Positions 7,225 through 8,435 of a stretch of 22,672 nt of DNA are shown here, in pieces; within the stretch, counting starts at the first letter, position 1; every line of letters begins with the position of its first letter. Both the position numbers and the translations under genes were made by a program. The notes under the pieces were generated by a model. It had not been told where the DNA came from and did no database searches. It worked only from the letters and a program-made list of their open reading frames with translations. Source of the DNA: Candidatus Micrarchaeia archaeon (GTDB lineage: Archaea > Micrarchaeota > Micrarchaeia > Micrarchaeales > CABMGC01); assembly GCA_049976305.1 (NCBI GenBank), contig JBMFIM010000012.1, forward strand, positions 1-22,672, in the 5' to 3' direction.

Positions 7225-7674
7225 ATGTCAGTAAGGGAAGAACCTAACTTTCTTCGAGAAATAATAAAGCTGAAGGAGTATACAACACCGACGCAATTGG
7301 CAGATCTAGAGGAAGCCCTTATAGACATAGATGATAATAAAAACATAAAATATGCAATAGCCTATGAAACTTTAGATCTTTGCAAACTGGCAAAGGAGCA
7401 TAAAAATGAGATGGCAGATGCAGTAATAAAGCTTATCAGAACTCTAGGCCAGAGGCCAAAGGTAATTATGGAGATATTAGGAAGCATAGCAAACACCTTA
7501 TCCATCTATTTGCCAAATGGAATGATAACTGTTGAGCAGGCCATACAATCAATAGAATTAATTGCAGAGCAAGCAGAGGAGGTGAAGAAAATTCCAAAAG
7601 ATAGCGAGGCTGCCGATTTTGCAGTTAAGCTTATTTTAGGATCTGGCGTCCTGAAGAAAATGGTAAGAAGTTAG
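7225..7674 (+). CDS. Hypothetical all-alpha cytoplasmic protein
   Basis: 149 aa ORF with ATG start, amphipathic helical composition and an AT-rich upstream region; no family recognised. Confidence 0.75.
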   Translation: MSVREEPNFLREIIKLKEYTTPTQLADLEEALIDIDDNKNIKYAIAYETLDLCKLAKEHKNEMADAVIKLIRTLGQRPKVIMEILGSIANTLSIYLPNGMITVEQAIQSIELIAEQAEEVKKIPKDSEAADFAVKLILGSGVLKKMVRS

Positions 7675-8435
7675 AAAAACTTAACTTGCCAACGCCATTC
7701 TTTTTCCTTAAAGGGATTGCTATTCAAAAGAATAAACCCCAATAGGTAATTTGGTTTTACCTGCAGGGTTATGAATTCTTGTTCGTTATAAGGATTCTTG
7801 GAATTAGCTATTACCCTATCACCAAGCTCGGAAATGGTAAGATCAGAAACCTTGTTTAAGTCATACACATTTTCTTTTGGAACTTCTACTACATAAACTA
7901 CAGGACGGCCTTCGTCGAACAGCTCTGCAAGCCTTTCATAAAATTCAGAAGAAGGCGTTCCATCATCATTGACATACATTCCCATATCCATTTGTTGCTT
8001 GAGCTCCAACGGGATCCTTGCTGCTCTAAGGGCTGTTTCAGCGCGTGTAGTCAAAGAAACGAAAGGAGTAAGCGTTACAGGAAAAGCTTTGCCTTCTTTC
8101 CAAAAGGTTACAACTTTGCCATATGCATGCAACTCAGCAACGTGGCTCAATGGCTCTCCGCGCAGGTTTGATTTGAGCTCTTCAGCTATATCAACCCCCA
8201 GCTGTATTGCCCTAGAAACTAATCCTTTTTCAAGCATCTTTTCAACTTCTTCCTCTTCTTGTTTTTTATCTTTCAGGCTTTCCTTTCCTAGTTTCAGAAA
8301 TTCCCCGCGGTATAACCTTAACCCTTGGGCTGGACGGGTCTCGTCAAATATTTTGAGGGCCTGTATGCCAACTTTCATTACTTCTTCCCAAGTCTCTTCG
8401 GGCTTAGTATATCTTTGAAACTTTTCAACATCCAT
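7671..8435 (-). CDS. Putative R-S-E class (cholera/pertussis toxin-like) ADP-ribosyltransferase
   Basis: LYRG (R43), ELHAYG (H103), PFVSLTT (S127), VVYVV, PYNEQEF (E218/E220) in canonical order. Confidence 0.7.
   Translation of the reverse strand: MDVEKFQRYTKPEETWEEVMKVGIQALKIFDETRPAQGLRLYRGEFLKLGKESLKDKKQEEEEVEKMLEKGLVSRAIQLGVDIAEELKSNLRGEPLSHVAELHAYGKVVTFWKEGKAFPVTLTPFVSLTTRAETALRAARIPLELKQQMDMGMYVNDDGTPSSEFYERLAELFDEGRPVVYVVEVPKENVYDLNKVSDLTISELGDRVIANSKNPYNEQEFITLQVKPNYLLGFILLNSNPFKEKEWRWQVKFF

Follow-up and report, generated by a model that had tools for sequence, protein, structure and literature searches.

The described systems closest to the protein reported here are ADP-ribosyltransferases (ARTs) of the cholera/pertussis (CT/PT) group, among them pertussis S1, cholera A1, the LT toxins and EcPltA. 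Lart1 of Legionella (PF26393) is arginine-specific. NarE of Neisseria (PF21641) is described as a lone arginine-specific A domain that has no leader peptide or B subunit and occurs in a subset of strains (PMC4440719). Xenorhabdus TreX, a prokaryote-directed ART, modifies FtsZ, and Rhs toxins of the CT group are reported to target RNA as well (PMC13617354). The published CT-group pattern is [YFL]-R-x(27,60)-[YF]-x-S-T-[SQT]-x(32,78)-[QE]-x-E (PMC3000352), and in five such enzyme pairs, each of two close relatives, it is the R-S-ExE signature that marks the enzyme specific for arginine (PMC3102197). An ART-like fold can also be inactive, as reported for CNF-Y D4 (PMC7883292).

ARTs in archaea are mentioned in general terms (PMC3000352), and a 2012 polymorphic-toxin table lists no archaea under Tox-ART-RSE (PMC3482391). 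No paper on a Micrarchaeota ADP-ribosyltransferase was found by full-text search of a collection with few subscription journals, and no such enzyme was found by title or abstract start in the literature on DPANN, ADP-ribosylation and toxins; a supplementary table of a comparative-genomics study could already list these proteins. The means by which DPANN archaea control or exploit their hosts have long been sought, and almost no molecules involved have been named.

The predicted ART gene, its family and its neighbourhood

The window (the whole stretch of DNA analysed, 22,672 bp) is contig C12 of a 723 kb genome, which is 93.7% complete and contains archaeal DNA polymerase D genes. Its DPANN origin, proposed in the original prediction, is supported by an 81%-identical relative from Candidatus Micrarchaeota and a further relative from Candidatus Micrarchaeia. 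The ART gene and its surroundings include the following features:

7671-8435, minus strand: predicted stand-alone ART, 254 aa, ~29 kDa
8545..9867, plus strand: class III aminotransferase, divergent and upstream of the ART, which starts a conserved block with DNA polymerase D
7225..7674, plus strand: 149-aa helical orphan, convergent with the ART and overlapping its stop
5974..7164, minus strand: MFS transporter gene broken into three fragments; two relatives of the genus have it intact, downstream of the ART
2902-4142, plus strand: AbiEii-like nucleotidyltransferase followed by an AbiEi-like regulator, 3.5 kb from the ART

The ART ORF is real. In a hydropathy scan, no stretch looked capable of acting as a signal peptide or of anchoring the protein in a membrane (the highest Kyte-Doolittle mean over 19 residues was 0.98), in agreement with the claimed absence of a Sec signal peptide. 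A B subunit was also absent nearby, as claimed, the flanks being the 149-aa orphan and the aminotransferase. Neither flanking repeats nor an excess of promoters was seen around the ART gene. Among the sequencing runs, one DNA run spans parts of the gene and no RNA run is listed.

The protein had been called an orphan, but it is not a singleton, and a small Micrarchaeota ART family exists. A HMMER search of 1.84 billion representative proteins returned three family members, and a profile search returned six among 8,000 scored candidates. The final alignment, which combined the searches with genome and metagenome loci and cluster members, contained 29 full-length sequences. All are single-domain proteins of 245-267 residues and they form six lineages with a mutual identity of 31-52%; no fused longer form was found among 7,998 scored candidates, which is weak evidence. 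In three of the 29 sequences, all of this species, a charged insertion of ~10 residues was observed (residues 51-60; window ~8256-8285, minus strand).

Across the 118 genomes of the taxonomic family, the ART was found in four (three intact copies and one broken off after ~50 codons) and no copy was seen in the other 114; these absences are soft since all genomes are incomplete (carriers 83-94%). In 401 genomes drawn from the phylum, three real matches were found, all within this ART family. Weak matches in genomes G014 (E 0.002), G309 (E 0.03) and G228 (E 0.006) were excluded from the counts; the first proved to be an unrelated ORF and the last covers 21 codons at a contig end. None of 119 pattern matches in viral contigs was confirmed as a family member. 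Where genes flanking the metagenome copies have a counterpart in this genome, the identity is mostly 60-86%, which suggests that these contigs also come from Micrarchaeota. The presence of the ART is patchy and confined to Micrarchaeota-like contigs, and the gene looks inherited and lost, not widely traded. One metagenome copy is frameshifted within or beside homopolymer runs, and its frameshifts may be sequencing errors. In genome G004, contig C17 has 90% DNA identity to the window, and the presence of two ART paralogues is doubtful: the second contig (C32, L007) is probably mis-binned because its genes share 97-100% identity with those of genome G001 and only 61-75% with those of this genome.

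The dN/dS of the ART was 0.26 when compared with its closest related species and 0.37-0.41 inside a second lineage, versus 0.05-0.10 for the housekeeping neighbours; the ART evolves 4-7 times faster than these and is under purifying selection. By segment, conservation across the six lineages was highest in beta-2 (75%) and beta-1 (64%), followed by the H103 helix (52%) and the ARTT loop with beta-5 (51%), and lowest in the N-terminal helix and linkers (25-28%). These values together indicate that the gene is maintained as a protein around the active site while changing faster than its surroundings.

The survey of neighbourhoods in relatives suggested in the original prediction was carried out and revealed four unrelated gene contexts with no conserved partner. 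The MFS link is common only to two species of this genus, with a peptidase M49 encoded farther along in the two relatives, and is absent from the other lineages; on the contig of one close relative, the MFS gene directly adjoins the aminotransferase with no ART between them. A contig of another run differs from the window by one base at 7116, so at least one of the MFS breaks may be strain-specific or an assembly error. Beyond the MFS gene, small winged-helix-like ORFs, a PadR regulator, a methyltransferase and the AbiE pair were found. AbiE operons usually carry the toxin gene second, and here it comes first. The 149-aa gene was considered as an antitoxin and rejected on its distribution: homologues are present in 4/118 genomes of a single genus, two of which have no ART, a paralogue lies at an unrelated locus, and the gene adjoins the ART in the closest relatives only.

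Two further orphans accompany the ART in relatives. An HExxH-bearing orphan, transcribed divergently from the ART, was found in the second lineage (L014:1124-1921, L015:333-1229, L016:1208-2185 and L017:1168-2133), with a homologue on G000 C11. Its dN/dS is 0.8-0.97 and its identity is 60-82% between contigs with ~90-99% identity in their other genes; it is a candidate for a diversifying protein of host or virus interaction. A 226-aa orphan (L008:2078-2758, plus strand) with an HHELPE motif and no Pfam match is convergent on the G018 ART and overlaps its stop.

Conserved residues and predicted fold

Residues 12-254 were modelled from an alignment of 13 family sequences in which no toxin sequence was included, with pLDDT 85.4 and pTM 0.84. 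An earlier model from 6 sequences (pLDDT 40) and its fold search were uninformative and were discarded. The seven motifs quoted in the original prediction were all found at the claimed positions, and the numbering of R43, H103, S127, E218 and E220 was correct. The motifs and the main elements of the protein are as follows:

residues 41-44: LYRG
8307..8309, minus strand: R43 in strand beta-1 (39-48 of the model), RGE, invariant in 29/29, predicted to bind NAD+
residues 71-75: GLVSR
residues 101-106: ELHAYG
8127..8129, minus strand: H103 at the end of helix 96-105, invariant in 29/29
8070..8117, minus strand: beta-hairpin insertion (residues 107-122), two strands in the model, with G106 and W112 invariant
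residues 124-130: PFVSLTT
8055..8057, minus strand: S127 in strand beta-2 (126-129), within the variant STS motif F-x-S-L-T
7911..8012, minus strand: family-specific helical insertion (residues 142-175), with E144, G152, Y154, G159 and F165 invariant
residues 179-196: the remaining quoted motif
residues 215-221: PYNEQEF
7776..7784, minus strand: E218-x-E220, the ARTT-loop Glu and predicted catalytic Glu, strand beta-5 (219-223), invariant in 29/29
residues 229-234: NYLLGF

A pattern of this motif order matched only the ART ORF among 780 open frames of >=150 aa in the genome and none of 100,000 shuffles; as it was derived from the ART itself, it is a lenient control, and the independent test is conservation. 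Thirty alignment columns are invariant across all 29 sequences. R43 is the only invariant residue of 13 arginines and H103 that of two histidines, while two of 11 serines (S74 and S127) and four of 32 glutamates (E45, E144, E218 and E220) are invariant. Around S127, residues T123, P124, F125 and L128 are also invariant.

In the model, the split beta-sheet core of the ART superfamily is present. R43, S127 and E220 are located on three strands (Arg on beta-1, Ser on beta-2, Glu on beta-5) in the order of the R-S-E (ARTC) clade, which upholds the proposed R-S-E triad with E-x-E. Judging from the fold match, these residues would cluster around the NAD+ cleft. The extra length of the protein is accounted for in the model by the N-terminal helix, helices 57-96, hairpin 107-122 and insert 142-175. 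The hairpin, situated where the toxins have an active-site loop, is a candidate latch or target-binding element.

All 41 matches listed by Foldseek are ART-fold proteins by title. The best one, and the only one passing E 0.001, was pertussis S1 (E 6e-4, probability 0.98). A second search, independent of Foldseek and covering 48,161 chains, gave TreX (Z 7.8), pertussis S1 (7.6), EcPltA (7.2), scabin (6.9) and LT (6.8) at the top, and 49 of its 50 listed rows are ART-fold proteins by name. Re-alignment gave Z of 8.1 for pertussis S1, 7.8 for cholera A1, 7.8 for TreX and 7.6 for LT-IIb; archaeal Tpt1 reached up to 7.5 with ~90 aligned residues versus 113-131 for the toxin group. According to the warning of the search tool, Z under 8 may reflect a common arrangement, and since the best values were 7-8, the weight rests on the uniform match list and the motif positions. 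A BFVD search gave no match at E 0.001, the best rows among the matches listed being uncharacterised phage proteins. A language-model search (scores 0.86-0.90, lead-level) pointed to NarE (0.90), Lart1 (0.89), DUF4765 and pertussis/scabin (0.88), and the nearest clusters were unnamed viral proteins (0.92-0.93). Foldseek with the family-only model, a form of the check proposed originally, gave an ART-like result, and it is nearly certain from the model that the protein has the ART fold of the cholera/pertussis group.

Comparison with described ARTs

Searches at the sequence level were negative. No PDB sequence was matched with phmmer or a profile, no NCBIfam or PHROGs entry matched the ART, and none of 10 members matched any Pfam family, including NarE, Scabin-like, Lart1 and DUF4765, at E up to 1. 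Phage and plasmid records gave two weak matches each (E 4-8). A search for NarE and Scabin-like proteins in 301 genomes of the phylum found no matches, but the controls were silent too, so this negative carries no weight. Comparison of CT-A1 or a five-member CT-like alignment with the ART profile was not significant (hhalign probability 0.2%). The published CT-group pattern matched the CT-A1 control and none of the 29 members; the spacers in the family are 71-81 and 88-90 residues versus 27-60 and 32-78 in the pattern.

At the level of predicted structure, the ART resembles pertussis S1, cholera A1, LT-A/LT-II A and EcPltA over 119-131 residues (core Z 6.8-8.1, rmsd 3.0-3.7). It shares with these toxins the Arg on beta-1, the His before beta-2, the Ser on beta-2 and the Glu on beta-5, and with CT and LT the E-x-E motif. 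However, identity in the structural alignments is only 8-20% and S-L-T replaces S-T-S. Unlike the AB5 toxins, the protein is archaeal, has no signal peptide, cysteine residues, A2 tether or B pentamer, and its gene has neither an adjacent B-subunit gene nor a secretion signal, as judged from neighbours and hydropathy. The description "cholera-toxin-like" therefore holds for the CT/PT subgroup structurally and fails for cholera toxin specifically, which ties with pertussis S1, TreX and LT-IIb.

TreX, the top match of the Foldseek-independent search, aligned over 114/128 residues. In contrast to TreX and other C-terminal ARTs of Rhs proteins, the protein is about twice as long and has no Rhs cage, secretion system or immunity gene; likewise, the N-terminal trafficking domain and downstream immunity gene that define polymorphic Tox-ART-RSE toxins were not found. 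NarE and Lart1, the best named language-model neighbours, differ in their eukaryotic hosts and the lack of an HMM match to the ART at E up to 1, and the ART is ~100 residues longer than NarE-type domains. The DNA guanine ARTs scabin, ScARP and pierisin belong to the same fold group (Z 5.2-6.9) but carry Q-x-E, whereas this family is acidic and has an invariant E-x-E. With archaeal Tpt1/KptA only the NAD-binding lobe aligns (Z up to 7.5, ~90 residues); these are two-lobed H-H-h enzymes, whereas the ART is R-S-E, with no RNA-binding lobe and no PF01885 match. Overall, the protein is a genuine and so far undescribed variant of the CT/PT-group R-S-E transferases, restricted to one lineage; it is predicted to work as they do, and it belongs neither to the AB5 toxins nor to a Pfam ART family.

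If beta-1 is ungapped, the first aligned residues put R43 in register with LT residue 7, PT residue 9, scabin residue 77 and CARDS residue 10. The residues at these positions are Arg9 in pertussis S1 and Arg10 in CARDS; cholera R7, H44, S61, E110 and E112 were read from the cholera toxin sequence. Scabin R77 is described in the literature (PMC8120803). H103 is likely the counterpart of cholera His44, judging from motif order and not from coordinates. The isoelectric point is 5.2-5.4 in six of seven lineage representatives and 6.2 in one, and the ART of this genome, which contains no cysteine residues, falls in the acidic tenth of the genome's long ORFs. Such an acidic pI is unlike what would be expected for a nucleic-acid binder. 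Because of the R-S-ExE signature, with E218-x-E220 invariant in 29/29, and the acidic character of the protein, transfer of ADP-ribose to protein arginine is the probable chemistry. In a probable division of labour, NAD+ would be bound by R43 and the strand of S127, E220 would act as the catalyst that frees nicotinamide, and E218 would orient the arginine acceptor.

Possible roles of the predicted enzyme

ARH, macrodomain and NADAR proteins were not matched in this genome, and ARH and macrodomain proteins were not found in five further genomes, among them the other carriers; ARH was found in 5/118 genomes of the taxonomic family, with no carrier among them. An irreversible modifier with no eraser or immunity gene must spare its maker, so its target should be foreign or the enzyme latent until triggered. 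NAD synthetase was not found in carriers; it was full-length in 3/118 genomes, and the matches in another 29 were weak, partial and cross-match-like. An archaeal NMN adenylyltransferase was found in one of five genomes (G001:C9:9558-10019), the one with the truncated ART (L004), which is a single case. NAD-dependent epimerases were present in all five, so NAD+ is probably present in the cytoplasm of the carriers.

The original prediction proposed a host-directed effector of an episymbiont or an antiviral or regulatory ART. We tentatively favour a mono-ADP-ribosyltransferase that modifies arginine in a non-self protein, with the archaeal host as the most likely source of that protein; that the target lies in the host is conceivable, at somewhat less than even chances. 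In this mechanism, the ART would reach the host via a cell-to-cell junction with no need for a signal peptide and would transfer ADP-ribose from NAD+ onto an arginine of the non-self protein. Hairpin 107-122 and the helical insert 142-175 would serve in target selection or hold the enzyme inactive until it encounters a host factor. Three points favour a host target: the family occurs in a single symbiotic lineage, its distribution suggests inheritance with loss more than wide exchange, and the carriers rely on NAD+ from outside. Only three representatives turned up among 1.84 billion proteins and none in viral contigs, a restriction to one lineage that contrasts with the broad exchange of defence genes. 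In culture, a Micrarchaeota symbiont is connected to its host through nanotubes whose 4.4-nm lumen could admit folded proteins, although the study itself suggests a host origin and metabolite cargo (PMC11329633), and entry of Micrarchaeota proteins into hosts is putative. NarE offers a precedent for action by an isolated A domain that has no leader (PMC4440719). Against this reading, no export signal and no linked delivery gene were found at the ART loci, and a scattered distribution, rapid evolution and damaged copies would be just as expected of an antiviral gene. The epimerases, which point to NAD+ in the carriers' own cytoplasm, and the 114/118 genomes in which no copy was seen also weigh against it.

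The most serious competitor, which we consider only somewhat less likely, is a single-gene antiviral ART that stays latent in the symbiont cytoplasm and on infection irreversibly modifies a viral or essential self protein. It explains the absence of an export signal more simply than a host effector does, and a suicide step (abortive infection) needs no eraser. Its distribution is patchy, it evolves fast and some copies are truncated or frameshifted; the unnamed viral proteins mentioned above form the nearest clusters of the language-model search; the AbiE pair lies at 2902-4142 and a PDC-S01-like gene is near the copy of a relative; compact systems such as AbiE and PDCs are reported to be enriched in DPANN (PMC12988326). 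However, PADLOC (2023 library) matched none of six members tested, neither as DarTG nor as any other system that it models. Three of the four contexts consist of housekeeping or orphan genes with no recognised defence system save an Lhr-type helicase, and every ART detected lies on a Micrarchaeota-like contig, a narrow range compared with the wide spread that is usual for defence genes. The search for an eraser in carriers was negative, which weakens the regulatory half of the original alternative.

A role in scavenging appears doubtful. The enzyme would then be an NAD+ glycohydrolase or small-molecule transferase that splits imported NAD+ or ADP-ribosylates free arginine or agmatine, both of which NarE accepts (PMC4440719). 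Carriers have no detectable NAD synthesis, and in two species of the genus the ART is followed by the MFS transporter, with peptidase M49 farther on in the two relatives. Yet this transporter link is missing in the other lineages, the large conserved insertions suggest a macromolecular partner, and the ART evolves faster than its metabolic neighbours. Modification of nucleic acids by a scabin-, DarT- or Tre23-like enzyme, or a derivative of the Tpt1/KptA RNA-repair enzyme, seems improbable: scabin (Z 6.9) and archaeal Tpt1 align, and no Tpt1 match was found in the five genomes checked, but E-x-E instead of Q-x-E and the acidic protein speak against the former, and the Arg instead of His on beta-1, a beta-5 Glu absent from Tpt1 and the shorter alignment against the latter. 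A DraT-type internal regulator, or a weapon against competing symbionts of a shared host, is likewise improbable, for although bacterial R-S-E enzymes such as DraT and Tre1 act in these ways (PMC8120803) and membrane tubes between DPANN cells have been observed (PMC11329633), either would require an eraser or immunity protein, for which neither ARH (no carrier among its 5/118 genomes) nor the convergent 149-aa gene, not tied to the ART, qualifies.

If the host-effector reading is true, it would provide a testable handle on the manipulation of hosts by symbionts. Because the ART is soluble, has a size of 29 kDa and its cofactor, catalytic residue and acceptor chemistry can be predicted, host lysate with labelled NAD+ could reveal its target directly. 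More tentatively still, it might represent the first catalytic host-directed DPANN effector, a toxin-derived ART that crosses the junction between symbiont and host, is activated by a host factor and uses host NAD+ to rewire a protein of the archaeal host. An antiviral role would make it an undescribed single-gene system, and even then the family would be an archaeal branch of the cholera/pertussis group missed by HMMs and by the published toxin pattern.

Several other genes were noted in the genome. A TraG/VirB4-type ATPase match is located on another contig, and nothing ties it to the ART gene. Three genes of the window (894-2657, minus strand; 14907-15389, plus strand; 17905-18387, minus strand) share a pilin-like leader and hydrophobic stretch at the start, and the first also encodes a long Ser/Thr-rich linker. 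A 653-aa protein (19272-21233, plus strand) with an N-terminal leader, a C-terminal membrane anchor and no Pfam match is likely a surface protein. The C-terminal part of a TnpB/Cas12f-like protein is encoded at the contig end (22175-22672, minus strand).
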